A DNA stretch of 64,000 nt from an uncultured Gemmatimonadaceae bacterium (lineage in GTDB: Bacteria > Gemmatimonadota > Gemmatimonadetes > Gemmatimonadales > Gemmatimonadaceae). Shown here one piece after another: positions 4,580 to 61,190 of the stretch. Within the stretch, counting starts at the first letter, position 1. Each line of letters opens with the position of its first letter. Both the position numbers and the translations under genes were made by a program. Under the pieces are notes generated by a model. That model saw only the letters and a program-made list of their open reading frames with translations, was not told where the DNA came from and searched no databases. The stretch spans positions 2,048,001 to 2,112,000 of the forward strand of contig OY970320.1 in the NCBI GenBank assembly GCA_963716745.1, in the 5' to 3' direction.

Positions 4580-5651
4580 TCAGTTCTCGCGGTGCGGCGC
4601 GCGCACCATCAATGCCGTCCACTTTCGCGCCAAGCGATACGGCCTGAGCACGTGATACAGGCCCCGCAGTCCGGCGGGCAGGGCGGTCACCTCCAGATCA
4701 TCGATGGTCGGCGTGATCGCCGAGCGCATCGCGAACGCCAGCCGATCCCGCGCTCGCTCACGCATCGCGAACTGGAATCTCGTGCTCTCGACGAAACCGG
4801 GCGCATCGCTCCCGCTCATCATCCGTCGGCGGATCTCTGCGACCAACGCAGGCGGGCACGCGTGAGCCAGCGTCTGCGCGGCCTTCGGCAGCGGGGACTC
4901 GGCGATCTCCGCCGCCAGCGCCAGCGCGAGTCCCGTCATTCGCGCCGTCCCCAAACTCGCGCTCGTCCGCTGCACGAACTCCCAGTCCATCGGCTCCAGC
5001 CTCGCCACTGCCGCGATATCCCCGATCCACCGGAGATGCGGCCATTCGTGTTTCCCACCGTGGATCGCAAGATAGACCAACGTCAACTCATTCGAGAGCG
5101 CCATTACCTCGGCCCCGCCCACCGGCACGCGTTGGGCGTTCTCCCACCAGAGCCCCTCGCCGCACGCTCAGCCCGAACTGCCGCTTGATGATCCCCCAAT
5201 GCAACTCCACGCTCGTGCCCGCCGCGTTCACGAGCGAGTGATGGTACTCGATCTCGCGGAACGCCGCATCCTGCCCCGGCGCGAGCTCGTGCACCCGCGA
5301 ATATCCAGCCGCCGACAGCTCCGCGATCGCGCGATCCACATCGCGCTCGTGCACCAGCAGGTCCACATCCATCTGCGGCCGCAGCGCGAGATCCCCGTAC
5401 GCGTGCGCCGCAAGCACCGCGCCCTTGAGCACGATCGCCGGCATGCCCGCGCGCTCCAAGCGCCGGCTGAGCGAGACGGTCTCGCCAGCGAGCATCAACG
5501 ATTGCATGGCCTGGGTCCTCGCGCGCCGCGCGATGTCCTCGCGCACCGGCGCCGGAACTGAAGAACTCGGCGCGGCCGCCACCCAGCGCGCCACCAGTGG
5601 CATCACGCCGTGCCACTCCGCCAGCTCCACCAGCGCGCTCCACTCACCCAC
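4580..5651 (-). CDS. Uncharacterised nucleotidyltransferase (NTP_transf_5-like); indel near 5150; start approximate
   Basis: IVLKGAVLAAHAYGDLALRPQMDVDLLV, VELHW, YLAIHGGKH-W--LRWIGDI. Confidence 0.85.
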
Positions 5652-5733: not shown

Positions 5734-7719
5734 CTAGTGCCCGCCGTACTGGTACGCGGTGAAGTCCTTCCACATCTGCTCGATCATCTTCCCTTGCAGC
5801 GTCAGCTTGTACTGCTTGAGCGTCGCCTGGTCGGTGATGGTCACCGTGTACGTCGCCGTCGACCCCACCGCGCGCGGCGCGAAATCGTTCACGCGATACA
5901 CGTAAATGCCCTGGTATGGCATCGCTTTCCCCGCGAGCTTCATCTGCTCGACGTTCAGCATCGCCGGCACCCGCACCTTCTCCACGGGAATGATCTCCAC
6001 GCCGTCGCGGAAGATGCGCATGTTGCCGAAGCTGCCCTCGCTCACGTTCTGCACCTTGTCCGGCTGATAGTACGGGAACTCGGTGCGGTCGGGGAACACG
6101 TTGAACACGATCACGGCCTTGCGGTCGTTCAGGAAATCGTCCCAATCGGTCCAGCCCTGGATCGGGTCGATCTTGGTGAACGTGCCATAGCGCTTGGGAT
6201 CGTCCTGCTTCTTGTCCGACAGCGCGTTCACGGCCTGCTGCTGACGCCACGCCATGAGCTGCGGCGTCATCATGAAGATCTTGAACGGGCCCTGCTCGGC
6301 TTGATACACCTCGATGTTCATGTCCTTGCCGAGCTTCGCCACCGCCGCGATCGGCGCCATCGGGAAGGGCTCCCGCGGCACGATCGGCAGCAGCTCGTCG
6401 CTCACCGGCTTCGCCACGAGCGACGGGATCGAATCGCGCGCCTTGGCCATGAACGGGAGGAGCACGGGCGTCGCGACGCTCGTCTCCACACGCGTACCGC
6501 CCTGGTCGCTCGCGGCCTTGTCGCTGTTCAACCCGAGGACGAATCCGTCCTTGCTCACGAGCGGACCGCCGGTGTTGAATTCGCCGACCGCCACGTCGCT
6601 CGTCACGGTGTTCGCGTCGGCGTTGCTCACGAGCCCCAGCGAGAAGACGCCGAGCTTGTTGAGCGGCGAGCCGAACGCGAGCACGCGGTCGCCGGGGCCG
6701 GGCGGCGCCGAATGCGCGCTGTCCGGGAACTGCAGCACCGCGCACTTCGGGCAGCGCTTGGGATTCACCGCGAGCACGGCGATGTCCTTGTCGCGGTCCT
6801 TCGCGATCACGCGCGCGTACACCTTGGTGACGCTGTCGAACTGGACGCGAATGTCGTCGCTGAACTCCACGAGATGCAGGTTGGTGAGCACGAAGCCGTT
6901 CGAATCGGCGTAGAAGCCGGTGCCGCGGAATTCCGTGCCGTACACCATGAACAAACCCGAACGGTCACGCTCGAAGATCTCCTTCTCGGTAAGCACTCTG
7001 GGCGGCGGCGGCGCGGCGATCCGCACGGTGTCGTGCGTCGCGATCGCGGTGCCGCCCGCGGCCGCGCCGAGCGGATTCACCGCCTCGACGCTCGCGTTCT
7101 TCTGCGTGAGCTCGATCGGCGCCATGTCTCTCGCGATCACGGCATTGAACGCCCACCGATAGCGCATGCCCGCGACCTCGGCCATCGATTCGATGCGGTA
7201 GCCGCCGGGGCGGAGACTGCGCGTGAACTTCCCTTCGAGATCGGTGGAGACGTGCAGCGAGTCGCCGCGCGGAGTGATCAGCAGCAGGTCCAACTGCGGC
7301 AGCGGACGCACCGTGAGATCGGGATTCACGACGGCCGCGCGAATGACCACGGGAACGAAGGTGTCCACCGGCGCGGAAGCGACCGGCACGGGCACGGCAC
7401 CCGGCATGACGCGGTGCGCGGTATCGGCGGCGACCTTCGGATTGTTCGGATTGCAGACCGTCTCGAGTCCGCTGATGAGATCGCTCGTGCCGCCCGCGCG
7501 CTTGAGCACCGTCTCGACGTCCGGCGTCATCACGAAGCTGATGCAGTTCTGCTTCGCCAGCGTCAGCACGCGCGTGCTCGCGACTTTCCGCTTGAGCAGT
7601 CCCACGAGATCATCGAGGGAGTACGCTTTGCCCTGGCCGGCGGCGACGGAAGATCCGGCGAGGAGCAACGCCACCGAGATCATCATGGCGCGGCAGGTCA
7701 TTTTGGGCACAGATCGCAT
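5734..7719 (-). CDS. Secreted S1/trypsin-like (DegP-like) serine protease domain protein
   Basis: Signal peptide; GTGF, LTNLHLV, DIAVL, FGSPL, FNTGGPL. Confidence 0.75.
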   Translation of the reverse strand: MRSVPKMTCRAMMISVALLLAGSSVAAGQGKAYSLDDLVGLLKRKVASTRVLTLAKQNCISFVMTPDVETVLKRAGGTSDLISGLETVCNPNNPKVAADTAHRVMPGAVPVPVASAPVDTFVPVVIRAAVVNPDLTVRPLPQLDLLLITPRGDSLHVSTDLEGKFTRSLRPGGYRIESMAEVAGMRYRWAFNAVIARDMAPIELTQKNASVEAVNPLGAAAGGTAIATHDTVRIAAPPPPRVLTEKEIFERDRSGLFMVYGTEFRGTGFYADSNGFVLTNLHLVEFSDDIRVQFDSVTKVYARVIAKDRDKDIAVLAVNPKRCPKCAVLQFPDSAHSAPPGPGDRVLAFGSPLNKLGVFSLGLVSNADANTVTSDVAVGEFNTGGPLVSKDGFVLGLNSDKAASDQGGTRVETSVATPVLLPFMAKARDSIPSLVAKPVSDELLPIVPREPFPMAPIAAVAKLGKDMNIEVYQAEQGPFKIFMMTPQLMAWRQQQAVNALSDKKQDDPKRYGTFTKIDPIQGWTDWDDFLNDRKAVIVFNVFPDRTEFPYYQPDKVQNVSEGSFGNMRIFRDGVEIIPVEKVRVPAMLNVEQMKLAGKAMPYQGIYVYRVNDFAPRAVGSTATYTVTITDQATLKQYKLTLQGKMIEQMWKDFTAYQYGGH

Positions 7720-7915
7720 GGCGGTTGGGCGGGGACGGGGAATTCGAGGGGTTGACGGTCCCCCAATTGTAATGCACATCACACTTTAGCGCGAACTACG
7801 AGATCGGCCATTGGCCATCGACCATAGCTATCGTAACGACGTAATAGCGGGCGGGGAGTCACATGACTTCGCGCGGTTCCGACAGCCGACAGCCGACGAG
7901 CCGAGACCCGCGTAG

Positions 7916-9610
7916 TTACGGGCACTCCGGCGGCGTGGCGCCGCGCGAGAGGGCATCATCGCGCTCGGCTTTGCACGCGTTCGCGTTCGCGGCGGTCGCG
8001 GCGGCGATCTCCTTCTTCAGCTGCTTCAGCGCGGGCGAGTCGGGGTATTTTCGGGCCAACTCCGAGAGCTTGTCGCTCGCGTTACCGTAGTCGACGAGCG
8101 CCATTTCATACTCGCCGTTGTTCTTTCGCGACGTGCCCGCCGCGATCGCATCCCTGATCGGCTGGATCACTTCGGTGAGATCCGTGGTGGACGGTACCGG
8201 AGCGATGCGCGGGCCCTTGGCCTTCGCGATGCTGTCCGCCTTCAGCTGGCTGTCCGCGCGCGCCAGGCTGTCGCGAAGGGCCGCGGCGATCCTCGCCTCG
8301 GAGTCGGGCTTGGCAGCGCTGTCCGCGACCGGTGCGGTGGCGGCGACGGCCGTCTTGGGCGGCTGCTGCTGCGTGTACCACCAGTAGCCGCCGCCGCCGG
8401 CGCCCGCGAGCACGACGAACAGCCCCACGAACAGTCCGGTGCGGCTCTTCTTGAGCCCGGCGCTCTCGGCCAGCTCGCCGGTGTTGCCGCTGCCGACGGT
8501 CGCGGTGGGACGGCGCGCTCCGCCGGTCGGCTGCGTCGCGGTCTCGCCTCCGAATCGTCTCGCTTCGGTGCGCATCGGATTCAACGCACTGTCCGCCGCG
8601 TGCGACGCCGTGATCGCGATCGTGCCCTGCTGCGAGAGTGCCGACTGCGGCATGGACGCGACGGCCTTAACAAGATCGCGGCCGAACTGGTTCACGTGCT
8701 GGTACCGCTCGCCGGGATGGTTCGACAGCGCGCGGTCCATCACCCACTGCATCTCCTCGGGCCACTGCACGTCGGGCGCGATCTCCATGAGCGTGCGCGG
8801 CTTCTCGGTGAGGCGCATGATGAGCGCCTCGCGGCTGGTGACGGCGGGGAAGGGCAGCTGTCCCGTGAACATGTTGAACGTGACGAGGCCGAGCGAATAG
8901 ATGTCGGTGCGCGAATCGAGCTGGTCGCCGCCGAGTTGCTCGGGCGACATGTACTCGGGCGTGCCGATCGCGAGCCCGGTCTTGGTGACCTTCTGCTCGT
9001 CGTTGCTCATGGCTTTCGCGATTCCGAAGTCCACGACCTTCACGACGTCTTCGCCGGCGCGGCCGCGCGCGACCATGATGTTGTCGGGCTTGAGATCGCG
9101 ATGCACGATGCCCATCTCGTGCGCGGCCTCGAGCGCTTCACTCGTCTGCCGCGTGATCTCCGCCGCGCGCACGGCGGGCAGCGCGCCCTGCCGCTCGATG
9201 ATCTTCGTGAGCGGCTCGCCGTCCACGAATTCCATCGCGAGATAGATGAGGCCGTCGGCCGTCTCGCCGAAATCGTAGATCGCGGCGACGTTCGGATGCT
9301 GGATGGAGCTGGCGTTGCTGGCTTCGCGATTGAAGCGCTGGATGGCGTCCTGGTCGTGCACCATGCCCTGGTGCATGACCTTCACCGCCGATTTGCGCTT
9401 CATCTTCACGTGCTCGGCGAGATACACCTGGCCCATGCCGCCTTCGCCGATGCGCTTGAGGATCAGATATCGGTCGGCCACCACGGAGCCCACGAGATCG
9501 CTCCCCGGCGGCGCGCGCAGCGTCGAACCATCACGCGGACAGAAGCGCTGCTCGGCGTCGTAACTATTGCCGCATTGCGGGCAGGTCTTCTGGGCGGGGG
9601 CGGGGGACAT
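7916..9610 (-). CDS. Hanks-type Ser/Thr protein kinase with N-terminal zinc ribbon and TM helix
   Basis: CPQC..CPRD, IGEGGMGQVY, HRDLKPDN, DFG, GTPEYMSPE; TM GLFVGLFVVLAGAG. Confidence 0.95.
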   Translation of the reverse strand: MSPAPAQKTCPQCGNSYDAEQRFCPRDGSTLRAPPGSDLVGSVVADRYLILKRIGEGGMGQVYLAEHVKMKRKSAVKVMHQGMVHDQDAIQRFNREASNASSIQHPNVAAIYDFGETADGLIYLAMEFVDGEPLTKIIERQGALPAVRAAEITRQTSEALEAAHEMGIVHRDLKPDNIMVARGRAGEDVVKVVDFGIAKAMSNDEQKVTKTGLAIGTPEYMSPEQLGGDQLDSRTDIYSLGLVTFNMFTGQLPFPAVTSREALIMRLTEKPRTLMEIAPDVQWPEEMQWVMDRALSNHPGERYQHVNQFGRDLVKAVASMPQSALSQQGTIAITASHAADSALNPMRTEARRFGGETATQPTGGARRPTATVGSGNTGELAESAGLKKSRTGLFVGLFVVLAGAGGGGYWWYTQQQPPKTAVAATAPVADSAAKPDSEARIAAALRDSLARADSQLKADSIAKAKGPRIAPVPSTTDLTEVIQPIRDAIAAGTSRKNNGEYEMALVDYGNASDKLSELARKYPDSPALKQLKKEIAAATAANANACKAERDDALSRGATPPECP

Positions 9611-9707
9611 GGGCAGATAATTGACGATTCGCGGAGGGTTGCGTCAACAATGTGGTCCAACGGCCAACCACTAACGACAGGCGGTTGGCTGTCGGCTGTC
9701 GCTGACT

Positions 9708-10769
9708 CTAACTCCCTGTGAACACCGGCTGCAGTTTCCCTTTCGCCGCCGCTCTCGCCGCGAAGAATCCGACGAGCATGAAGAGGACCGAAACGGCAAT
9801 GAAGATCGACGGCAGGCCGCTGTATTCGTGCACGAGGAACGCCTGCGTCGGATCGGTGGGATCGTACCAAGCCGTCGTGCTGTCGCCGCGATGATAGCGT
9901 GAGGCGATGTGCTGGGCCCACATGCCGCTGCGGCTCTCGCGCATGACGGTGGTGTTGCTGCTCACGTAGTCGCGCTCGCCCACGTGATATCGATAGGTGA
10001 CGATGGGGCTGTAGGTCACGCCGCCCTTACTGCCGCGATGCGATTCGACGTCCGTGAAGAGCACGACGGCGGGCGCGGACACGTAGTTGCTGAGCTTCCG
10101 GTACTGCTGGTAGTTGAGCCAGCTGCCAAGGGCCGTGAAGCATCCGGCGAAGAGAATGAACGCCGCGATGGGGAAGCGCCGGCCGGAGACGCCCCGCGAC
10201 TGCATCGTTCTCACGGTAGCGGCGATCCCGGGCGGGAGATCGCGCAGCTGGGCGTCGAGCGGGTCGGGCGTTGGTGTCGCGGGCGGCGTCTCGACGATCC
10301 CGAGGAATTGGCGCGCAGCGGCGGCGGCTTGGGCGTGCGACGTACTGCTCGTATACCAGCTCGTGAGAGGGAGCCGGTATCCGTCGCGCAGCACGATCGT
10401 GACGCGGAAGGTGGCTTGCGCCGTGCGTTGCGTGTTGGCGGAGACGCTCTGCTCGGCGACGACATCGGAGACCTTCGAGAGGTCCACCTCATCGCGCGTG
10501 GTGGTGCGAAGCGTGTGCCGCGTGATGACGAGCGTATGGCTGGGCCGGTCGAACGATGCGGTGACACGGGACGGGAGGAGCACGAACGCGAGGCCGATGA
10601 CGCCGAGGATCGGGCCGATGAGCATGGCCATCACGTTGTGCGCGGGATCCCTCACGCCGGCGAAGAGAAAGGCGGCTCCGACCGCGACGAAGATGCCTCC
10701 GATCGCGCGGAGCGAGGCGCCGGAGTCGGCGAGGACGAGTCGGTCGGGAGTGCGGAGTAGGATCTTCAC
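9708..10769 (-). CDS. Membrane protein with C-terminal DUF3592-like domain
   Basis: Four TM segments; YSPIVTYRYHVG..WYDPTDPTQAFL pattern. Confidence 0.6.
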   Translation of the reverse strand: MKILLRTPDRLVLADSGASLRAIGGIFVAVGAAFLFAGVRDPAHNVMAMLIGPILGVIGLAFVLLPSRVTASFDRPSHTLVITRHTLRTTTRDEVDLSKVSDVVAEQSVSANTQRTAQATFRVTIVLRDGYRLPLTSWYTSSTSHAQAAAAARQFLGIVETPPATPTPDPLDAQLRDLPPGIAATVRTMQSRGVSGRRFPIAAFILFAGCFTALGSWLNYQQYRKLSNYVSAPAVVLFTDVESHRGSKGGVTYSPIVTYRYHVGERDYVSSNTTVMRESRSGMWAQHIASRYHRGDSTTAWYDPTDPTQAFLVHEYSGLPSIFIAVSVLFMLVGFFAARAAAKGKLQPVFTGS

Positions 10770-10991
10770 GCTGTCATAGACGATTCGGTCGATGGTGGCG
10801 CGATAGTGGTGCTAAACTGTAAACGCAGACTGTCGGCTGTCGGCTGTCGCCTGCGACGGCGGGCCAGAGGGCGAGTTACGCGGCCGCGGAAAAAATCGTC
10901 TTGGCACATCGAAAGGACCTGCATCACGCGCGACGCCCTCTTCCATCGTGGATCAGGGGGCACAACCTGTCCGACCGGAGGAGCGGCTACC

Positions 10992-11367
10992 ATGAGCAAG
11001 AACAAGAAGGGCTTCACGCTGATCGAGCTTCTGATCGTCGTGGTCATCATCGGCATTCTGGCCGCGATCGCGATTCCGAAGTTCGCCAACACGAAGGAGA
11101 AGGCCTACGTCGCGTCGATGAAGTCCGACCTTCGTAACATGGCGACCGCGCAGGAGAGCGTATTTCGCGGACAACCAGACGTACACCACGGTGCTCGCGA
11201 ACATGAACTTCACGGCGTCGCAGGCGGTGATCGCGACCGTGACGGATGCGAAGGGCACGGGTTGGGCGGCGAACACGTCGCACCCGGCGACCGCGATCAC
11301 GTGTGAAGTCGGTTTCGGCGCGGACTCGATCGCCGGCGTCGGCGATGGCGTGATCAAGTGCCAGTAA
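10992..11367 (+). CDS. Type IV pilin (indel near 11160)
   Basis: MSKNKKG|FTLIELLIVVVIIGILAAIAIPKF prepilin motif; GGAG RBS; C-terminal Cys pair (TCEVG..IKCQ) in the shifted frame. Confidence 0.92.
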
Positions 11368-11434: not shown

Positions 11435-11521
11435 ACTGCAGACTGAGACGTTAGACCTAGACGTTAGAATGCGACTACTCGCCGCATTCTAAGTCTAAGT
11501 CTATAGTCTCAGTCTGTAGTT
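11435..11521. repeat. Palindromic element built of AGAC(G)TT/AGACT units, ending GTAGTT
   Basis: ACTGCAGACTGAGAC pairs with GTCTCAGTCTGTAGT; inner TTAGAATGCG/CGCATTCTAA; related to 30479-30514. Confidence 0.75.
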
Positions 11522-12843
11522 CAGCATCCCCCACCGTCGCTCCCGATCGTGTACTGCACGCTCGTCCAACGCGAATCGACACCGGCAGCGAAGCCGTCGA
11601 TACCGAACACGGCGGTCGAGGCGACGAATTGATTCTGCGTCGCCTGCATTCCGCCGGGTGGACCGTAGTTGCGCGTGATCACCGCCGTGCCATCGACGCA
11701 GAGCGTCGCCGACGTCGTGCCGATCTTGCGCAGCCGGTACGTATGGAACGCGGTGCCCGTGAGCGCGAACGTCGCGCCCCGATTGGTCCATTTGCCGCTT
11801 CCGTTGTTGTAGGTCGCGAAGGAGACTCTATCGCTCGCGATCCCCACGAACTCCTGTCTGCGGCCGCTGCCCTGTGGCTCGGCAAAGCCGAATACCGCTT
11901 GGATCGTGCCCGCGGAGGCATTGACCACGCGGAGCCTCGCGTCCATGACCGCGGATCCGGTTCCCAGCGAATCGTGTCGTGAGTAATAGAGGCTGGTATT
12001 CGCGGTGCCCGCCTGCAGCCTCAGTTCGGTGCCCGCCGTGAAGGCCGCGGTGCCGAGCGTCGGATCGCCGGTGGACGCGAACGTTCCCCAGCGCGGTTTG
12101 CCGTTGAGATCGGGCAGAGAATCCTGCGTGCCATCGTAGATCCGGAGCCAGGTCGTCTCATGCGGCGCCGGCCACGATGCGCTCACCATGAGCGTGAAGA
12201 AGAAGGCGTGCACCGTGTCGGTGACGCCGGGATTCCAGTTGCTGGTCTTGAAGAGCCATACGATGCGATTCGTCGTATCCTTGCCCGCGGCACCGCCCGT
12301 GTAGGCTGACGGACGATTCGGATAGAAGAAATACTTCTGCCCCGCCGCGGTGAAACTGCCGGTGCCCGACTGATTGCTCACGCTCACGGCGCAGCCGACG
12401 CACGGACTCGGCCGCGAGACGTTCGGTGCGACGGTGAAGAACGCGAACACCCCCGACGTATCCGGCGCCGCCACCTCCGGATAGTTGGAACCGATCGCGA
12501 ACGCCTGGCGATTGCGAAGTTCCACGTGCGTGAACCATGTGCGGCTGCCCGCGGGGCCGACGCCGACCACATTGTGCAAACTGTCCACGACGCCGAGCAC
12601 GTCGATCGTCACGCCCTGCTGGCCATAGATCGCGGGACTGATCTTCGTGTCCGTCAGGCCCGCAATGCTGCCGGAGAGCGGCACGAACGTCGTCGTTATC
12701 GTGTTGCCGCTGATCATGCCGTTGACGAAGCCGAGTACGGGTGTCGACGGCGTCGTTATTGGAGCGGAAGGCGCCGGCTCGCTGCACGCCGCGGCGAGCA
12801 GGACGAGGGCAGCCGTTGGTATCAGTCTTGTGTGAGAAGTCAT
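11521..12843 (-). CDS. Surface lipoprotein: unnamed N-terminal domain plus beta-rich (LamG-like?) C-terminal domain; last gene of RiPP-like locus 1
   Basis: Lipobox LLAAAC; N-domain aligns by eye with 55338-55632. Confidence 0.7.
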   Translation of the reverse strand: MTSHTRLIPTAALVLLAAACSEPAPSAPITTPSTPVLGFVNGMISGNTITTTFVPLSGSIAGLTDTKISPAIYGQQGVTIDVLGVVDSLHNVVGVGPAGSRTWFTHVELRNRQAFAIGSNYPEVAAPDTSGVFAFFTVAPNVSRPSPCVGCAVSVSNQSGTGSFTAAGQKYFFYPNRPSAYTGGAAGKDTTNRIVWLFKTSNWNPGVTDTVHAFFFTLMVSASWPAPHETTWLRIYDGTQDSLPDLNGKPRWGTFASTGDPTLGTAAFTAGTELRLQAGTANTSLYYSRHDSLGTGSAVMDARLRVVNASAGTIQAVFGFAEPQGSGRRQEFVGIASDRVSFATYNNGSGKWTNRGATFALTGTAFHTYRLRKIGTTSATLCVDGTAVITRNYGPPGGMQATQNQFVASTAVFGIDGFAAGVDSRWTSVQYTIGSDGGGC

Positions 12844-12929
12844 ACGAAGATACCTGTGCGAGAAAGTGTGCTGCTCTTCGGTCAATGTATAACGGCCAAA
12901 TGCGCGCCGCATCAGCGACGTGCATCACA

Positions 12930-13844
12930 CTACGGGAACAGGATCGCCGGCTCGCGTTCCTGCGCGGCGGTCCCAGGGAACAGCACTTGGATCGAGTCCG
13001 GCGTCAACACGAGCGCCTTCATCGAACTGTTCGCCGCACCCATGGCCGCCGCGAAGATGCAGTACGACGCGTTGCAGCTCGCGGGGCCGCTCGCGGTGAG
13101 CGAGTCCGGGATCGCGTTCATGGGGTTCGTGCCGGTCGCGTCGATCCGGCGGAGGATCAGCTCCGGAACGGGCGCGATGTAGTAGATCTTCGTGCCATCC
13201 GCCGACCATGTCGGCGAGAACGCGCCGCCGCCTTCGTTCGTGATGCGCGTGGGCGTCCCGCCGCCGCTCGCCACGACGTACACCTGCGATGTTCCGGTTC
13301 CCACGCCCGTGTACGCGATGGTGTGGCCCATCGGATTCCACGCGGGCGCACTCACGGGGCTGTACACCGGGTCGCCGGTCGCGAGCATCTGCGCAGAATC
13401 CATCGTCCCCTGGTCCAGCGCCGGCGCGCGGATCAGCCACACCCTCGGCACGCCCGTGCGCGTGCTCACATAGGCGATGGAATCGCCGCTCGGGCTCAGC
13501 GCCGGCGTGTAGTCGAATGCGCCGCTATGCACGACGCGGTGCGGGGTCGTGATGTCGAGGTCGGCAATGTAGATCTGCGGGTAGCCGTCGCGCTCGCTCG
13601 TGAACACGATGCGCGATGCCGCACTGTTGGGATCGTAATTGTTCGATCCGGCGGTGAGCACGACCACGGAGTCGTTCCGGAATCGCACGAGACTCGTGAA
13701 GCCACCCGTGTCGGCCACATACACGAACGCCGGCAATGTCCCGGGCGGCGGCCCACCGCCACCATCGGTGCCCGTCGAGTTGCTGCAGGCGAGCGCGCCG
13801 ATCGCGAGGGCGGCCGCAAGAATGCGCACGGCGTCAGCTCGCAT
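12930..13844 (-). CDS. TolB-like (PD40 repeat) beta-propeller lipoprotein
   Basis: Lipobox GALAC; IVFTSERDGYPQIY, PALSPSGDSIAYVSTRTG, PTWSADGTKIYY. Confidence 0.85.
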   Translation of the reverse strand: MRADAVRILAAALAIGALACSNSTGTDGGGGPPPGTLPAFVYVADTGGFTSLVRFRNDSVVVLTAGSNNYDPNSAASRIVFTSERDGYPQIYIADLDITTPHRVVHSGAFDYTPALSPSGDSIAYVSTRTGVPRVWLIRAPALDQGTMDSAQMLATGDPVYSPVSAPAWNPMGHTIAYTGVGTGTSQVYVVASGGGTPTRITNEGGGAFSPTWSADGTKIYYIAPVPELILRRIDATGTNPMNAIPDSLTASGPASCNASYCIFAAAMGAANSSMKALVLTPDSIQVLFPGTAAQEREPAILFP

Positions 13845-14103
13845 CGGCCACCAACAATCCGGCATCGTTGAGCGCCGCGATCAGCGCGCGTGTCTCTTCG
13901 CGCGCCACGGGCTCGGTCACGGTGTACTCCGCCGCGAGTGTCTGCACGATCTCATCCTCCACGCGCCCCTCGAGCAGCAGCGCCCAGATGCGCGTACCGG
14001 TCGCGTTCAGCGAATGGTAACGATTGGTGCGGAGATTCAACAACACCGCACCCTCGGCGAGCGTCGCGGCGAGCGCGTCGGGTGTCGCGCGCCATCGGGT
14101 CAT
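13834..14103 (-). CDS. PqqD-family RiPP recognition element (89 aa)
   Basis: EGAVLLNLRTNRYHSLNATGTRIWALL..LAAEY..LNDAGLL; ATGA overlap with the reconstructed kinase stop. Confidence 0.9.
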   Translation of the reverse strand: MTRWRATPDALAATLAEGAVLLNLRTNRYHSLNATGTRIWALLLEGRVEDEIVQTLAAEYTVTEPVAREETRALIAALNDAGLLVADAS

Positions 14104-14886
14104 GACAGCGCACCCGCGAGCGTGCCGGCGATCGCGTGCAACTGCCGGGCGGTGTGAGCTGAGACGGAACGCCGGGGCGTCCGTTACGAGCGCCCGCAGC
14201 GTCTCGAGGTGCGCCTCCGAGTGGCCGTCCGGCATCATCACCCAGGTGGATTGTCGTACGAGCTGCAGCAGTGCTTCCGCGGCCGCCATGGGCAGCAGCT
14301 CGTCGCGGTCGCCGCGCTCCAGGAAGACGATCGCCGCGACGCGCGCGCGCTGCACGACGGGAAATCGCATCGGTACACGGTCGCGCTCATCGCGGAATCC
14401 CGGAGGCGGCGCGACGCCGGTGAGTTCGGGGAATTCTGGGGCGAGCGCACGGCTTACGGCGAGCGGTTCGCGCCACGCGTGCGCGACGACTCCCGTCGGT
14501 GTGCGCTCGACGATCACGCCATCGTCGCCCATCAGTCTCCAGCCGGCGCGTACGAGCGCGTAGGCGAGCGTGGACTTTCCCGTTCCGTTCCCGCCGGCGA
14601 GGATCCAGGCGCGGCCCTTCGGATCCGCCACCGCCGCGGCGTGCACGTGGAAGCGGCCGAGGGCGCGCAGGCGCACGATCGCGCCCACGCGTGCGAGGAA
14701 CTGGCGCTCGGGGGTGGCGGTGGTGGCGTAGCGATCGCCGCGTTGCAGGCGGCCACGGCGCACGGTGAGCGTGCCGCCGTCGGGCATCAGCTTGAGCACC
14801 GAGCCGGCTGCGTCGGTGAAAGCATCGATCGGACCGGCGGTCCAGGCGAACCCGGGCACGGGCTCCGCCTGTTGCGGCGTCAGCAG
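14100..14886 (-). CDS. HPr-kinase-like P-loop kinase (start uncertain; indel near 14158)
   Basis: HVHAAAV, ILAGGNGTGKST (Walker A), LMGDDGVI; shifted frame ends HTARQLHAIAGTLAGALS-TGA. Confidence 0.8.
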
Positions 14887-15104
14887 CCGAACTTCTGTCC
14901 GCTTACTCCACAGGTGATCTGCAGCGCGAACGCGACGCCGGCGGGGCCGAAGAAATGCTTCGTCAGCACCGTGAGCGATTCGTGGGTCGCGAGCTGCGGA
15001 GTCTCCCAACGGAGACGCGCCGCGCCCGATGTGTCGGGAGCGGGATCGCCGGAGCCGAGCGGAATGTTCGAACCGTCGAGGGGAGAATTGGCCATCGAGC
15101 GCAT
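14880..15104 (-). CDS. Putative RiPP precursor peptide 1 (alternative start 15095)
   Basis: Leader motif WETPQLATHESLTVLTK then HFFGPAGVAFALQITCGVSGQKFGC; directly upstream of kinase and PqqD. Confidence 0.75.
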   Translation of the reverse strand: MRSMANSPLDGSNIPLGSGDPAPDTSGAARLRWETPQLATHESLTVLTKHFFGPAGVAFALQITCGVSGQKFGC

Positions 15105-16874: not shown

Positions 16875-18371
16875 ATGCGTCACACACTGATCATCTCTGG
16901 CCTCGCTTCGTGCGTGGCCGCTATTGCCGGTTGCAAGTCCAACGATACGGGCTCGACGGGTCCCACGGGCCCGAGCGGATATGCGGCCAACATCACGAAA
17001 GTGAGCGGTGACGATCAGACGGGCACGTTCCTATCGCCCGTTCCAGTGCCGCTCGTCGTCGAGGTGACCGACTCAGCGGGCAAACCCGTGACCGACGCCA
17101 GCGTCGCGTGGGCGGTCAACCTCCTCGATGCCTCGCAGCTCCTGCAGGTATCGACCACCGATGGCAGCGGCCAGACTCAACTCTCGCCCGTTCTCGGGGG
17201 GCGGCCGGGCGCCTTCTCCGTGGTGGCCGCGATCAACAGCAAGGCCGTCACCTTCACGGGGACCTCGAACGTGGCCTTAGGCGCGGGTCTCAAGAACTTC
17301 ACGACCAATCTCTTCGCCAAGTGCGCCCTCGACACGCAGGGCAACGCGCTCTGCTGGGGCAACGGTCTGTTCGGCCAACTCGGACCCACGACGACCGGCC
17401 CCGTCACCGGGCCGGTGCCGATTCCTGGTGGCCACGCGTTCACGCAGATCAGCGGCAACGGGGGCTTGGACTGCGGACTCACGGCCGGCGGCGCAATGTA
17501 CTGCTGGGGCAACGCCATGTATCCGCAGATCGGAAGCGGAGCGCCGGGCACCGGAACCTTCACGACGCCGGTCGCGGCCGGCAATGGCAAGATCTTCAGT
17601 CAGATCGCGGTCGGCTACGCGGTCGCGTGCGGCATCTCGTCGGGCGTGACGTATTGCTGGGGCTTCGGCCACCAGGGCGCGCTGGGCACGGGAGACACGG
17701 CCACACGCTTCGTGCCCACCGCGGTGCAGGTCCCGTCGGGAGTCGCGTTCACCTCGCTTGCGGCAGCCAGCGGCGGATTCACCTGCGGGCTCACATCCGC
17801 AGGCGCGGCGTATTGCTGGGGTGAGAACGACGTTGGAGAACTTGGCACGGGCAGCAGCTCGCCGAGTATCTCGCTCGTGCCCCTCCAAGTGACCGGCGGT
17901 CACACATTCAGCACGCTCGTCGTGAGTCTCTCGGCGGCATGCGGATTGACCTCGGGCGGCGCCGTGTACTGCTGGGGACATGGCGCCAATGGCAACGGCA
18001 CGACGGCCGACGAATATTCTCCCACGGCAATTTCGCAGAGCGGCCTGACCTTCACGCAGCTCTCCGCGACCGGCGGTCTGGGTGCCGTCTGCGCCTTGAC
18101 GTCCGCGGGCGCGGCGTACTGCTGGGGCAGCAACATATACGGCGATTTGGGAAGCGGGTCGTTCGCGACCAGCGGTACGACGCCTGTTCCGGTGACCGGC
18201 GGCCACGTCTTCAGCGCGGTCGTGCCCGGTCCGTTGAGCACCTGCGGATATTCGACGGGCCAGGTGATGTATTGCTGGGGCGCGAACCAATCGAGAGAGC
18301 TCGGACTCGATCCCGGGGCCGACACGATGTACGCGGTGCCGCAGGCGGTGCCGGGGTTGGGCAAGCCGTAG
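16875..18371 (+). CDS. Lipoprotein with Ig-like domain and RCC1/BLIP-II-like repeats
   Basis: GGAGG RBS; AIAGC lipobox; VSGDDQTG..PLVVEVTDSAG; repeated CGL--G--YCWG-N--G-LG. Confidence 0.9.
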   Translation: MRHTLIISGLASCVAAIAGCKSNDTGSTGPTGPSGYAANITKVSGDDQTGTFLSPVPVPLVVEVTDSAGKPVTDASVAWAVNLLDASQLLQVSTTDGSGQTQLSPVLGGRPGAFSVVAAINSKAVTFTGTSNVALGAGLKNFTTNLFAKCALDTQGNALCWGNGLFGQLGPTTTGPVTGPVPIPGGHAFTQISGNGGLDCGLTAGGAMYCWGNAMYPQIGSGAPGTGTFTTPVAAGNGKIFSQIAVGYAVACGISSGVTYCWGFGHQGALGTGDTATRFVPTAVQVPSGVAFTSLAAASGGFTCGLTSAGAAYCWGENDVGELGTGSSSPSISLVPLQVTGGHTFSTLVVSLSAACGLTSGGAVYCWGHGANGNGTTADEYSPTAISQSGLTFTQLSATGGLGAVCALTSAGAAYCWGSNIYGDLGSGSFATSGTTPVPVTGGHVFSAVVPGPLSTCGYSTGQVMYCWGANQSRELGLDPGADTMYAVPQAVPGLGKP

Positions 18372-57840: not shown

Positions 57841-57846
57841 CTGCAT

Positions 57847-58844
57847 ATGCTCCTTGGCTTCGCGGTCACGCGTCACTGTAATCTTCGTTGTCCCCATTGT
57901 ATTCGGGACGACGTCGTGACGGTCGGCGAACTCAGCGCCGCGCTCATCGGCCGCATCACCGGCGAGGCGAAGGCGCTCTTCGGCGAAGTGAGAGTCAGTC
58001 TCACCGGCGGCGAACCCCTCATCCATCGCGACTTCGCCGGCATCGTCGACGGCACTGCGCGAACGCGCGGTGCCCTGGACGATCGTGACGAACGGCTGGC
58101 ACATTGCGCGCGCGCTTCCGGTGCTCGAGATCGCACCCGCCCGCCGCGGTGCGGCTCTCGCTCTCCGGCGCGAACGAAGCTGTGCATGACGCCGAGCGTG
58201 GCGACGGCTCGTTCCGCCGCGTGCTCTTGGCCGCCGCGATCCTCACGAGCCGCCGGATCCCCTTCTCGCTCGGGATCCTCATCGATCGCCGCGACCGCAG
58301 CGATCTGCGCGAGGCCGCGGATCTCGCGGAGTCGCTCGGCGCGATGAGCCTCCAGGTGCTGTTCGCGCAACCGGTGCCCGCGAGCGCCGCACGCGGCTCC
58401 GATCTCGCACCGCGCGACTGGCAGCAGGTGGTGCGCGAGGTGCGCGCATTGAGCACGGAGTCGCACCGGTGCACTGCCGTCTCGCTCGATTTCGGTGCGC
58501 CGCCCTTTCCGGGTGAAGCGCCGCTCACCTGCGACACGTTCACGCACCGCCGGATCTATGTGAATCACAACGGCGAGCTCTGTCTGTGCTGCCAGCTCTC
58601 GGAGTACGGCGAGATCCCGACCGACGTCGTCGCCGATCTGAACGCCGTGCCGCTCGCGGTCGCGTATGGCGCGTACACGCGTCAACTCGCGGAATTGCGC
58701 CGCGCCGCCGAGCCCGAAGCAGGCGATGCGCTCGCCAAGTTCCCGTGCCTTCGGTGCGCGCGGACGTCGGGCAAACTCGATTGGCTCGCGCGGTTCCCGG
58801 AGAGCCCGTGGCACGATGCCCCCGGCGTGCCCGCCCATGCGTAA
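57847..58844 (+). CDS. Radical SAM enzyme with SPASM/twitch-like C-terminus (indels near 58074-58140)
   Basis: CNLRCPHC (CxxxCxxC), LTGGEP, IVTNG, SLSGA..HD-ERG-GSF; C-x13-G-x4-C and distal CLRC. Confidence 0.92.
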
Positions 58845-59959
58845 ACTCGCGTTCGCTCTGTTGCTCCCGTTCCTGCTCGCCTCGTCGTGCGACATTCCGG
58901 GGGTCACCGACACGTCGCCGATGATCGATGTCACCGGGCGCACTGAGCGCGGGACCATAGTGGTGCTGCGCCTGCTCGTCGCCGGCTCGCCCGTCGCCGG
59001 CGCTGCATTCTCGGTCCCTCCGGACGGACACGCGTTCGTCCTGAACGAAGACAGCCTCTTCTTGATACAGCCGGGACCCCTCACGATCGATGCGCGCGGG
59101 CTTCTGGGTGGGGACAGCGTGCACGCCACACGCACGATCACGATCTCCGCGGCACCCACGATCGTGTTCGACGGTCTGGTCGCCGGGAATCGCGACATCT
59201 ACTCGGTAGGGCCTCAATGGCAGTGCGCTCGTGCGCCTCACCACCGATCCGGGCGATGATCGCATGCCCACCGCGCTCGGCGCCACGGTGTACTTCATCA
59301 GTTCGCGCAGCGGTACCGCCGAGCTGTTCACCGTTCCACTCGCAGGCGGCGCGGACGCGCCATTGGCCGCGAGCACGCTCGCGGAGAGTCAGCCGGCCGT
59401 CGCGCCGAGTGGTTCGCATCTCGCGTACGTGGGCACGGATTCGTTCCCGCACATCTATGTCGCCGGCCTCAATGGCGGTGCCGTTACTCGATTCGCGGCG
59501 GCCGACGCAGGATTCTCCGGAGCGCTGGAAGCCAGTCCCACCTGGTCGCCCGCAGGCGATCACATCGCCTACACGACCACGCGTGATGGCGCCGCCGGGA
59601 TCTATACCGGCGCGCTCAACGGCGCCGCGGGAAGCGCGACGCAGCTCGTGAGCGGCGCGCACGGGTACGCGAATGTCGACCCGGCGTGGAATCCGAACGG
59701 ACTCAGCGTCGCCTTCGCATCGAATCGTGACGGTCCAACGGATCTCTACTTGATCACCATCGCGTCGGGTACGGTGACGCGCCTGACGACGCGCGGAAAC
59801 GTGGGACAGCCCGCATGGCTCGCCGACGGCCGGCTGATGTTCACCGAATTCATCTCCGGCGCGAACGGGCTGCGCTGGCTCGACCCCGCGGACACGAGCG
59901 TGATCCACGTCATTCCCACCGGCCCGGGATCGGCCGAGCACGCGTCGGCGGTACCATGA
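58837..59959 (+). CDS. TolB-like (PD40) lipoprotein (indel near 59210)
   Basis: LLASSC lipobox; PTWSPAGDHIAYTTTRDG, PAWNPNG-SVAFASNRDG-TDLY. Confidence 0.85.
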
Positions 59960-60243
59960 GCGCGAGCCCGATACGGCCGCTCCGGCCCGCCGAGAGTGTG
60001 CTCGTCGCGCATCTCGACGGTGAATCGGTGCTGCTCGATCTCGAGAGCAAGCACTACTATCGCTTGAACGAGAGCGGCTCGGCGATCTGGCGCGCGGTTG
60101 AGTCCGGCGCGGAGCCGCACGCGATCGCCGACGCGCTGGTGTCCGCGTTCAATGTCTCGGAACCCGAGGCGCGCGCGGCCGTCGATGGGCTGCTCGCGGA
60201 TCTGAGCGAGAAAGGATTGCTCGTGCCCAAGGCCGCCGTATGA
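59956..60243 (+). CDS. PqqD-family RiPP recognition element (95 aa)
   Basis: LDGESVLLDLESKHYYRLNESGSAIW..L---F-V..LL-DL-EKGLL; ATGA overlaps on both sides. Confidence 0.92.
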   Translation: MSASPIRPLRPAESVLVAHLDGESVLLDLESKHYYRLNESGSAIWRAVESGAEPHAIADALVSAFNVSEPEARAAVDGLLADLSEKGLLVPKAAV

Positions 60244-61190
60244 GCCGCCTGCTCTCGGCGACACCGATCGCACTGGAGGCGGACCGCTTCACGGCATCGC
60301 TGATGCGCGAGATGCTCCCCGCTGTGCGCGAAACCGGTGGTCCAGCGATCGCGGGCCGAGTGCGCGCGCTGCGTTCGGCGGCGGACGCTCCCTCCTCGCC
60401 TGAGCGGGCGCCGACGCTGCGCGTGAGCGGCGTCGCGTTCTGGATCGATGCGCCGCCATCGAGCCGCGTCGCATTTCGAAATGTCAGCGGCTCGGTGCAT
60501 GGATCGATCGACCGCAACTCATCGCGCGCGGAGCTGCGCGTATCGCCGCGCATTGCGGATGACGAGCGCATGGATCCGGGAATCGCGTTCGGAGTGGTGG
60601 TGTCACTCCTGGCGGCGCGCTTGGGCCACGCGCTCGTGCACGCCGCCGGCGTGATCGCACCAAGCGGACGCGCCTGGTTGCTGGTTGGCGACTCCCACTC
60701 AGGAAAGTCGACGACCACTGCGACGCTCATCGCTGGCGGATGGGACTATCTCGGCGATGACTCGGTGGTCCTCTCGCTGGCGCGCGGCGACGCGCCCGGT
60801 GCGCGCGTGCATGTCGAAGGCTGGCGCGTGCCGATCCGCCTCGACCACGGCTCGACGGCCGGTGCGGCGCGCGCCGATCGCGTCGAGGTCGACCCGCACG
60901 CGCTCGGCGGCGGACGGTGGCGCGCATCGGCGCCGCTGGGCGGATTGCTCTTCCCGCGCGTGGATCGCGCGGCGCGCACCACGCTCGCGCCGATCGCGCG
61001 CGCCGATGCCTACGCCGCGCTCGTGCGTCAGAGTCCGTGGCTGCTCGCCGATCCTGTGAGTGCGCCGCGCGTGAGCGACCTGCTCTCGGCGGCGAGCGGC
61101 CATTCCGCCGCGCGCCTCACGCTGGGCGCCGATTGCTATGCGGACGCCGCGCGGATGACCGAGGTGCTCGGCGCGCTGACGGGCCTCTAG
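60240..61190 (+). CDS. HPr-kinase-like P-loop kinase
   Basis: LVHAAGV, LLVGDSHSGKST, YLGDDSVV, LVRQSPW; paralog of 14100-14886 (LVRQSTW). Confidence 0.85.
   Translation: MSRLLSATPIALEADRFTASLMREMLPAVRETGGPAIAGRVRALRSAADAPSSPERAPTLRVSGVAFWIDAPPSSRVAFRNVSGSVHGSIDRNSSRAELRVSPRIADDERMDPGIAFGVVVSLLAARLGHALVHAAGVIAPSGRAWLLVGDSHSGKSTTTATLIAGGWDYLGDDSVVLSLARGDAPGARVHVEGWRVPIRLDHGSTAGAARADRVEVDPHALGGGRWRASAPLGGLLFPRVDRAARTTLAPIARADAYAALVRQSPWLLADPVSAPRVSDLLSAASGHSAARLTLGADCYADAARMTEVLGALTGL

Follow-up and report, generated by a model that had tools for sequence, protein, structure and literature searches.

A candidate family of kinase-tailored linear peptides with lasso-type leaders in the Gemmatimonadaceae

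Introduction

Homologues of HprK can act on peptides: the paeninodin kinases phosphorylate linear, leader-bearing lasso precursors at a serine residue, and in pseudomycoidin a nucleotidyltransferase adds a hexose to the phosphate (PMC8498205). The first report of peptides that lack a cyclase, are tailored by a kinase and carry lasso-type leaders dates from 2026 and concerns Bacillota only: the linear polyphosphorylated peptides (LPP) encoded by lppA-K-B-S-D-N clusters (Popov et al., Nat Commun 2026, PMC13381572). Here we describe a small gene at positions 14880..15104, minus strand, of a 64,000-nucleotide stretch of the genome of an uncultured Gemmatimonadaceae bacterium (GenBank assembly GCA_963716745.1, contig OY970320.1; this whole stretch is called the window). 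The gene lies ahead of those for an HprK-like kinase and a PqqD-type RiPP recognition element (RRE; RiPP, ribosomally synthesised and post-translationally modified peptide).

What is said of LPP and of the other published systems refers to the available excerpts of the articles cited. The LPP precursor carries the motif YxxPxVLxHQxIxFETxxS and is accompanied by the kinase LppK, the RRE LppB, an MsbA-like exporter, a nucleoside triphosphate (NTP) transferase and LppS, a SipW-type peptidase that cuts after Thr-1 (PMC13381572). LppK polyphosphorylates Ser3 of the core of a cyclase-less peptide with a lasso-like leader, the complexes of leaders with the RREs TbiB1, TfuB1, PbaB1 and LppB are described in the same article, and LPP and paeninodins alike are described as restricted to Bacillota (PMC13381572). 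LPP is the closest published system to the Gemmatimonadaceae family. A preliminary description of the window, made from its letters only, had proposed a lasso-type leader on a core that cannot form a lasso; this overall interpretation is supported, with refinements, and since the LPP publication in 2026 the idea is no longer without precedent (PMC13381572). Literature searches found nothing on the Gemmatimonadaceae precursor family, returning only LPP, lasso reviews and surveys of biosynthetic gene clusters (BGCs), one of which, in its available part, merely counts lasso BGCs (PMC11316326); nothing was found on the HprK-related kinase, SynChlorMet or HPr-rel-A cassettes either.

A precursor gene conserved beside an HprK-like kinase

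The open reading frame (ORF) at 14880..15104 is probably the precursor (A) gene of a RiPP-type family of the Gemmatimonadaceae, with a leader bound by the RRE, a linear core tailored by the kinase, and no lasso. Direct support exists for the reality of the gene, its conservation and synteny, the leader motif, the homology of the RRE and the kinase, and the absence of lasso features. The elements concerned are the following:

14880..15104, minus strand: precursor peptide gene, 74 amino acids from the ATG at 15104 or 71 from the ATG at 15095; stop codon TGA at 14880-14882
14958..15008, minus strand: leader recognition motif WETPQLATHESLTVLTK (W33, P36, L38, H41, S43, T48), from a regular expression, alignments and profile hits
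14883..14957, minus strand: predicted 25-residue core HFFGPAGVAFALQITCGVSGQKFGC, following a predicted cleavage site; Ser68 codon at 14901-14903, Cys65 and Cys74
14097..14859, minus strand: HprK-like P-loop kinase, start codon GTG at 14859; sub-cut-off NCBIfam and Pfam matches and a profile-structure match
13834..14100, minus strand: PqqD-family RRE, lasso B1-like, from Pfam PqqD; its ATG overlaps the kinase stop (ATGA) once a one-nucleotide indel is removed

The 74-residue ORF is confirmed as a real, conserved and unannotated precursor gene. Its translation, MRSMANSPLDGSNIPLGSGDPAPDTSGAARLRWETPQLATHESLTVLTKHFFGPAGVAFALQITCGVSGQKFGC, stands as a single ORF in the ORF listing, and the precursor-peptide profile finds it in the window's own genome with an E-value of 4e-20; no Pfam or NCBIfam family matched it. 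In a window of 66.6% G+C, the G+C content at third codon positions (GC3) is about 0.76-0.79 in the precursor frame over 14870-15049 and is highest in the kinase frame below about 14870 (0.72-0.97 in most bins). The precursor stop is separated from the kinase GTG at 14859 by a 20-nt spacer with GGAG. Translation likely starts at the ATG at 15104 or at that at 15095, and the closest relatives of the precursor, P0081 and P0082, start at the residue aligned with the second Met. Across 27-28 loci the invariant residues are specified by several synonymous codons (four at P4 of the motif, three at L6, two at H9, two at S11, three at T16 and four at G21), which indicates selection on the protein. All homologous loci preserve the precursor's own stop codon and its separate frame, and no indel interrupts the ORF in the contigs of any of the four public soil runs that cover all or part of it. 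It is thus conservation beside the same kinase together with the synonymous changes, and not the motif, that distinguishes the gene from a chance ORF; the merger with the kinase N-terminus that the preliminary description had thought possible after read polishing is excluded by the kept stop and the indel-free contigs.

The distribution of the family was followed in 201 genomes of the window's family, the Gemmatimonadaceae, with cut-offs of E<=1e-4 for the precursor profile and E<=1e-40 for the kinase; the counts of precursor, kinase and lasso B2-type peptidase (B2) among them include the unpublished genome G033, and the B2 count also G007 and G134. A search with the peptide only gave clean ORF matches in 10 other genomes, each with its own stop and each followed by a kinase homologue. 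The profile matches 33 of the 201 genomes, in 18 of 77 genera. The kinase subfamily, selected independently of the precursor, occurs in 38 genomes, 31 of which also have a precursor hit. In 27 of the 38, precursor and kinase share contig and strand and are less than 3 kb apart, so that the claim of a precursor gene, which the preliminary description would have given up had homologous loci lacked the ORF, holds. Two genomes, 76% and 80% complete, have a precursor hit and no kinase. In G077, G127 and G166 the precursor is found downstream of the kinase.

Searches beyond this sample led back to the same group. The pattern HES[LM][TM]VLT[QK] was found in 23 stretches among the genomes of 185,579 species, 22 of them confirmed, and all 22 carry titles of metagenome-assembled genomes of Gemmatimonadaceae, Gemmatimonadales or Gemmatimonadota/-etes. 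In a sample of the phylum the profile matches 11 of 93 genomes of the window's family and none of 307 genomes of eleven other families. Among 1.84 billion representative proteins there are 79 profile hits at E<=1e-3 and 19 at E<=1e-10, and the 17 nearest homologues contain no Pfam domain and bear either no name or that of 'hypothetical protein'. Within the genomes searched, the precursor family appears confined to the Gemmatimonadaceae.

The surroundings of the gene are conserved as well. Of 22 loci compared, 21 have the kinase after the precursor (the contig of the other one stops short of it), 19 have PqqD next (three contigs end before it), and 15 have a gene for a PD40 beta-propeller lipoprotein after PqqD, several others being cut by contig ends. 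A gene for a lipoprotein with a concanavalin A (ConA)-like domain is present in 21 of the loci: in 19 it immediately precedes the precursor, and in L053 and L054, which are of the window's own type, it comes after PD40. The recurrent gene order is ConA-like, precursor, kinase, PqqD, PD40.

Leader motif and core

The residues W33, P36, L38 and T48 stand, as the preliminary description stated, at positions 1, 4, 6 and 16 of WETPQLATHESLTVLTK. They supply the [Y/W]xxPxL element and the penultimate-leader Thr of lasso leaders (consensus from the available parts of PMC13381572 and PMC10368454), and this spacing is conserved in the family. Taken by itself, the motif is not above chance: the regular expression [YWF]..P.L.{9,10}T. 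has five matches in the six-frame translation of the window, of which only the present one falls within a short ORF that a kinase and PqqD follow directly. An alignment of 26 sequences gives the leader consensus RRxWxxPxLxxH[EA]S[LM]xx[LM]T[Q/K/R/L], after which the cores vary. Among the 79 profile hits, 74 have the loose form [WYF]xxPx[LIVMFA]...T, three have Ser at position 16, and two are truncated or fused.

The composition of the core HFFGPAGVAFALQITCGVSGQKFGC is as first described: no Asp or Glu, two Cys (C65 and C74, the latter C-terminal), one Thr (T64) and one Ser (S68). In the 18 subtype-1 sequences the N-terminus is hypervariable and the C-terminal core near-invariant, with 20 of the 25 core positions invariant and two others almost so. 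Ser68, Cys65 and Cys74 are the same in 18/18, and the residue preceding Cys65 is N, T or G. Both the Thr and the Ser had been put forward as kinase sites; Ser68 emerges as the better candidate, since it is invariant and the position of Thr64 is not conserved. The 79 profile hits fall into at least four core groups:

Core group 1 (the window's): HFFGPAGVAFALQI[N/T/G]CG[V/I]SGxKFGC
Core group 2: ...LLQ..I[S/T/P]C...C...
Core group 3: LLFLQ.S..QCF..NG.P.PC
Core group 4: ...IP[C/G]S[Q/G]GF[C/F]P, accompanied by a radical SAM gene

At least one Ser occurs in every one of 114 family cores, taken from sequences chosen by a leader regular expression that fixes positions 1, 4 and 16. The alignments show a conserved leader joined to cores that are hypervariable across subtypes, a hallmark of RiPPs.

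The kinase, the RRE and an assembly indel

A profile of 25 members of the kinase family matches HPr kinase structures with an E-value of 1.7e-5, and all 25 match HprK_rel_A/B. The kinase has a GxxGxGKS P-loop (GGNGTGKST) followed by a GDD segment (GDDG), and GGNGTGKSTLAYALVRAGWRLMGDDG aligns to HprK structures 1ko7 and 1jb1.

Kinase and PqqD form a single apparent frame of 391 residues in the window: an extra G at 14159 shifts the last ~20 kinase codons and fuses the frame to PqqD. This G is absent from the closely related assemblies L053 and L054 and from both public-run contigs that cover the site (X1, near-identical to the window there, and X3, about 93% alike). Once it is removed, the kinase ends in a FRLxHTxxQLH tail, as do 24 of the 26 other kinases compared; the motif is lost only in the window's kinase. 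In all eight other loci where both genes were found, PqqD lies in the -1 frame relative to the kinase. The fusion is probably a one-nucleotide assembly indel. Other genes of the window are split as well (an NTP_transf_5 gene at 4580-5651 and a radical SAM gene at 57847-58844), which suggests sporadic indel errors in the assembly.

Pfam PqqD matches the RRE with 62.8 bits (cut-off 23.4). Its best matches in the PDB are TbiB1 (5v1u, E 5.6e-13) and TfuB1 (6jx3, E 1.5e-6), followed at a distance by PbaB1 (9x90, E 0.022); LppB (9x8z) is not among the structure matches at E<=1. By sequence comparison, the closest solved relatives of the PqqD protein are thus the lasso B1 proteins TbiB1 and TfuB1.

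No lasso

The isopeptide ring of a lasso peptide needs Asp or Glu at core position 7-9. The window core has neither there, such residues are present in only 10 of the 114 family cores, and 44 of the 114 have no Asp or Glu anywhere. A discrete B1 protein of the lasso type is present, and no B2 peptidase or lasso cyclase was matched in the window ORFs scanned with Pfam and NCBIfam. The asparagine synthase family PF00733 has eight hits in the genome, none inside the window. The first of two full-length Asn-synthase homologues scores 418 against a cut-off of 267 with TIGR01536, which is also the top hit of the second, and the lasso cyclase model NF033535 gives them 212 and 52 against a cut-off of 525; this scoring covered the two full-length homologues, besides which the genome has a split third copy and some short PF00733 hits. 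Without an acidic core residue, and with no cyclase found among the sequences scanned, the 25-residue core cannot make a lasso and no macrolactam is expected, in agreement with the preliminary description.

Partner genes, sister clusters and scattered parts

Four further features of the window bear on the system:

12930..13865, minus strand: PD40 (TolB-like beta-propeller) lipoprotein, from Pfam PD40; no peptidase domain
11521..12912, minus strand: lipoprotein with a C-terminal ConA-like/jelly-roll domain ('unk463', 463 amino acids), from synteny, lipobox N-termini, AlphaFold and Foldseek
4580..5651, minus strand: NTP_transf_5 nucleotidyltransferase, split in two frames, Pfam PF14907 on both halves; the genome's only copy
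57847..61190, plus strand: second, paralogous module with radical SAM (split), PD40 (split), PqqD and HprK-like kinase, from domain and profile matches

Most of the PD40 homologues compared have lipobox-like N-termini. For the ConA-like protein, an AlphaFold model from a 22-sequence alignment reaches a predicted local distance difference test (pLDDT) score of 68.7 overall and 75-95 in the C-terminal half (34 when modelled from the single sequence), and Foldseek returns generic lectin-like or carbohydrate-binding-module beta-sandwich matches, with no catalytic clue.

Fuller versions of the locus exist in other genera. In G054, G113 and G178 the cluster comprises, in this order, precursor, ConA-like protein, radical SAM enzyme, kinase, PqqD, a lasso B2 peptidase (Transglut_core3), NTP_transf_5 and PD40; the unpublished G033 looks the same by its coordinates. 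In G054, G113 and G100 a single open frame joins NTP_transf_5, a hydrophobic segment and PD40, which are separate frames in G178. The domain order suggests a membrane-spanning tailoring and propeller protein. Such a fusion, in which the propeller would sit outside the membrane and be physically linked to a tailoring enzyme of the cytoplasm, speaks for PD40 as part of the system. The single frames lie at L075:1130-3034, L076:1088-3151 and L033:5013-7139, in three genera, and have a lipobox-like hydrophobic joint.

Other parts are scattered over the window's genome. The split NTP_transf_5 gene is possibly part of the system, acting in trans. Its halves overlap near 5090-5170, it adjoins an ORF for an FkbM-like methyltransferase, and it lies downstream of an exopolysaccharide (EPS)-like region, with Asn-synthase-type amidotransferases just outside the window. 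Between it and the module, 5734-10769 on the minus strand encodes a secreted trypsin-like protease of 682 residues, a Hanks-type Ser/Thr kinase of 575 residues and a DUF3592 membrane protein; among ten loci compared, these genes recur only in the sister genome G179. A stand-alone lasso B2 homologue lies about 0.9 Mb away (L039:7606-8094) and scores 70.5 bits with NF033537 against a cut-off of 33; it is flanked by a GGDEF gene and the gene for pyruvate kinase, and no PqqD or cyclase adjoins it.

In the second module, the radical SAM frames are at 57847-58347 and 58104-58844, the frame-split PD40 lipoprotein has its signal at ~58840 and its body at 59231-59959, PqqD lies at ~59950-60243, and the HprK-like kinase at 60240-61190 is ~36% identical to the first. 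No precursor of the family was found beside it: a regular expression on the window gave none, and the whole-genome profile search at E<=0.1 returned only the gene at 14880. The second module may share that precursor or use an unrecognised one.

RCC1-repeat proteins are encoded beside both kinase/PqqD loci, at 16875-18371 (plus strand; also with a Pfam Big_1 domain) and at 55323-57881 (plus strand; it appears frame-split and was identified from ORF translations only). Genes for type IV pilin or GspH-like pseudopilins with an N_methyl motif are found at 10980-11306 (plus strand) of the window, at L075:7644-8144 and at L076:7388-7879; their adjoining the module here and the fuller clusters of two other genera may be coincidence.

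Proposed mechanism and alternative explanations

From these elements we infer the binding of the leader, the phosphorylation and its site, the cleavage site, export and the role of the product as follows. The N-terminal ~49 residues would serve as leader, its W33-x-x-P36-x-L38 knob bound by the adjacent PqqD-type RRE in the manner of lasso B1-leader complexes, and the invariant H41-E-S43...T48 part would be read by the tailoring and processing enzymes. By analogy with the paeninodin kinases and LppK, the HprK-like kinase would phosphorylate a Ser hydroxyl of the bound linear precursor, for which Ser68 (core Ser19), in the invariant loop C-G-[VI]-S-G-x-K-F-G-C, is the best candidate. The leader is then probably removed after Lys49 by a lasso B2-type cysteine protease; cleavage after motif position 17 is favoured by Thr48 at -2 and by the B2 genes of the sister clusters. 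The expected product is a hydrophobic phosphopeptide of 25 residues, linear or looped by a Cys65-Cys74 disulfide once outside the cytoplasm, where it would be used together with the PD40 propeller and ConA-like lipoproteins.

Several observations weigh against this account. In four of the 38 genomes with the kinase the precursor hit is on another contig, and seven have no precursor at E<=1e-4, one of these kinases being cut by a contig end. No PqqD match was found in L049 and L052, where kinase and PD40 lie too close together to leave room for one, or within the 3 kb examined in L047 and L048. The kinase matches its models (NCBIfam HprK_rel_A/B, the SynChlorMet ScmC model and Pfam Hpr_kinase_C, the last with 22.2 bits against a gathering score of 33.3) below all curated cut-offs, and the RRE falls short with NF033530 lasso_PqqD (58.2 bits, cut-off 70). 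No core position has a conserved Ser or Thr across all subtypes, and the family-wide hydroxyls are limited to S43 and T48 of the presumed leader, either of which could be the phosphosite. Neither a leader peptidase nor an exporter belongs to the conserved five-gene module. B2 occurs in 138 of the 201 genomes (31 of the 33 with the precursor versus 107 of the 168 without it); since it is so common and the genomes are kin, the assignment of a B2 acting in trans is weak, only a hint. The parts given to the PD40 and ConA-like proteins are suggested by synteny alone. The divergent loci L047, L048, L049 and L052 all have precursor, kinase and PD40.

Other explanations share some of the same evidence. 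It is quite unlikely that the 74-residue peptide is a leader-guided phospho-protein and no natural product, phosphorylated by PqqD and kinase (possibly at Ser43/Thr48) and kept uncleaved in the cytoplasm or membrane, where it would regulate the adjacent envelope proteins or act as their scaffold, even though the module is devoid of peptidase and exporter, the only hydroxyls conserved across all subtypes are those two, and the H-E-S-L-T-V-L-T-Q block is conserved beyond the needs of RRE binding alone. A B2 leader peptidase is present inside the sister clusters, the hypervariable N-terminus and near-invariant C-terminal core fit a leader/core split, and the equivalent Thr is described as a cleavage determinant in lasso peptides and LPP (PMC13381572, PMC10368454). 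An exported mini-lipoprotein, in which the RR, the hydrophobic stretch and the 'I-x-C' form a long Tat/Sec lipoprotein signal and a Cys-loop lipopeptide of ~10 residues matures, would account for the RR(P) before the motif, for a core that opens with a hydrophobic run ending in L-Q-I-x-C, and for a module that lacks an exporter and has two conserved lipoproteins as partners. It is nonetheless very improbable: the residue preceding the Cys is N, T, G, S or P, of which N and P are unsuited to lipobox position -1, the charged H-E-S and the K/Q break the would-be h-region, 21 of the 114 cores lack any Cys, and the motif spacing suits RRE binding, with a PqqD gene adjacent. The lipobox/Tat reading of the core was set aside on these grounds.

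Little credence is also due to a thioether peptide, which would follow class III/IV lanthipeptide logic with an HprK-type kinase: Ser68 would be phosphorylated and eliminated to dehydroalanine, then attacked by Cys65 or Cys74. The invariant Ser between two invariant Cys in C-G-[VI]-S-G-x-K-F-G-C invites the idea, as does a kinase that is the only tailoring enzyme in cis, but Pfam and NCBIfam reveal no lyase or cyclase domain in the module, the kinase is retained in Cys-free subtypes, and the phosphates or polyphosphates left by known RiPP kinases of the HprK type are stable (PMC13381572, PMC8498205). A true lasso precursor served by a cyclase encoded elsewhere has next to nothing in its favour beyond the lasso type of leader and RRE and a genome with a B2 homologue and several Asn-synthase homologues. 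The core without Asp or Glu contradicts it, positions 7-9 being acidic in so few family members; by their scores the two full-length Asn-synthase homologues fall with ordinary asparagine synthase, and the cyclase would need another pair of nucleophile and acceptor. A chance ORF or mis-assembled kinase N-terminus, finally, might have been suspected from the one-nucleotide indels nearby (14159 and the split genes at 4580-5651 and 57847-58844). It is refuted, with a negligible residual probability: every homologous locus preserves the stop codon and the separate frame, the contigs of four runs have no indel in the ORF, and the codons of invariant residues vary synonymously.

The precursor of a kinase-tailored linear peptide therefore stays the preferred reading, and a further-reaching version of it can be offered as speculation that is rather doubtful: a trans-envelope peptide system, not a secreted antibiotic, with hand-over or binding at the surface and, in a bolder variant, a thioether formed via Ser elimination. 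The RRE/kinase pair, with radical SAM enzyme, B2 and nucleotidyltransferase in the fuller versions, would make a phospho- or phosphoglycosyl-peptide in the cytoplasm; the NTP_transf_5::TM::PD40 protein and the ConA-like lipoprotein would pass it on or bind it at the cell surface, where it might serve, for example, as primer or anchor for a surface glycopolymer.

Comparison with known systems

The Gemmatimonadaceae are an abundant and hardly cultured soil group, in which the recognition logic of LPP would have been recruited independently, in a version with its own leader signature, a B2 in place of a signal-peptidase-type protease, and several distinct core families. The two conserved extracytoplasmic partners hint at a role in the cell envelope. 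For RiPP researchers, precursor, kinase and RRE offer a small system of three genes for testing, in which a single candidate phosphosite stands out, and some 80 diverse precursors are available for studying the co-evolution of RRE, kinase and leader.

The phosphorylated lasso peptides paeninodin and pseudomycoidin have in common with the window locus an HprK-homologous kinase and a B1 RRE that recognises a WxxPxL leader (PMC8498205). Unlike the window locus, they have clusters that encode a lasso cyclase and B2, cores that are acidic at position 7-9, and a phosphosite at a C-terminal Ser; the window locus shows none of these features. The HprK-related/PqqD cassettes of Haft (TIGR04352/TIGR04353 'HPr-rel-A system', TIGR04355 and SynChlorMet ScmC, TIGR04249) likewise combine an HprK-like protein with a PqqD-family chaperone and sometimes include radical SAM enzymes. 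All 25 family kinases match models of these cassettes, with scores so far below the cut-offs (e.g. 45 versus 200 bits) that they make up a separate kinase subfamily.

With LPP, as presented in the excerpts of PMC13381572, the family shares a lasso-like [Y/W]xxPx[L/V] leader, a discrete PqqD-type RRE, an HprK-like kinase, the lack of a macrolactam cyclase, a predicted linear product and an NTP_transf_5 enzyme in the wider system, as well as His at motif position 9 and Thr at position 16. Set against the window's family, the LPP motif matches only at positions 4, 9 and 16, plus an aromatic residue at position 1, which is Tyr in LPP and Trp in the Gemmatimonadaceae. The LPP phosphosite is the Ser at motif position 19 (core position 3), where the Gemmatimonadaceae family has F, V, Y or I. 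Among RREs, the window's resembles TbiB1 more closely than those of LPP or paeninodin. LPP uses a SipW-type peptidase, whereas a lasso B2 peptidase is found in the Gemmatimonadaceae sister clusters; in the window's own genome the best match to a SipW-type (archaeal-type signal peptidase I) enzyme reaches 19.3 bits with TIGR02228 against a cut-off of 51.85 and lies far from the locus. An MsbA-like exporter belongs to the LPP cluster and none to the Gemmatimonadaceae module, in or beside which the ORFs scanned contain no ABC transporter domain. The NTP transferase is part of the LPP cluster, while the window's single NTP_transf_5 gene is 9 kb off and split. The PD40 and ConA-like lipoproteins are conserved partners in the Gemmatimonadaceae and are not listed as LPP core genes in the available text of PMC13381572, and the phylum is Gemmatimonadota in one case and Bacillota in the other. 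Overall, the Gemmatimonadaceae family differs from LPP, its closest published counterpart, in leader, peptidase, exporter and partners.

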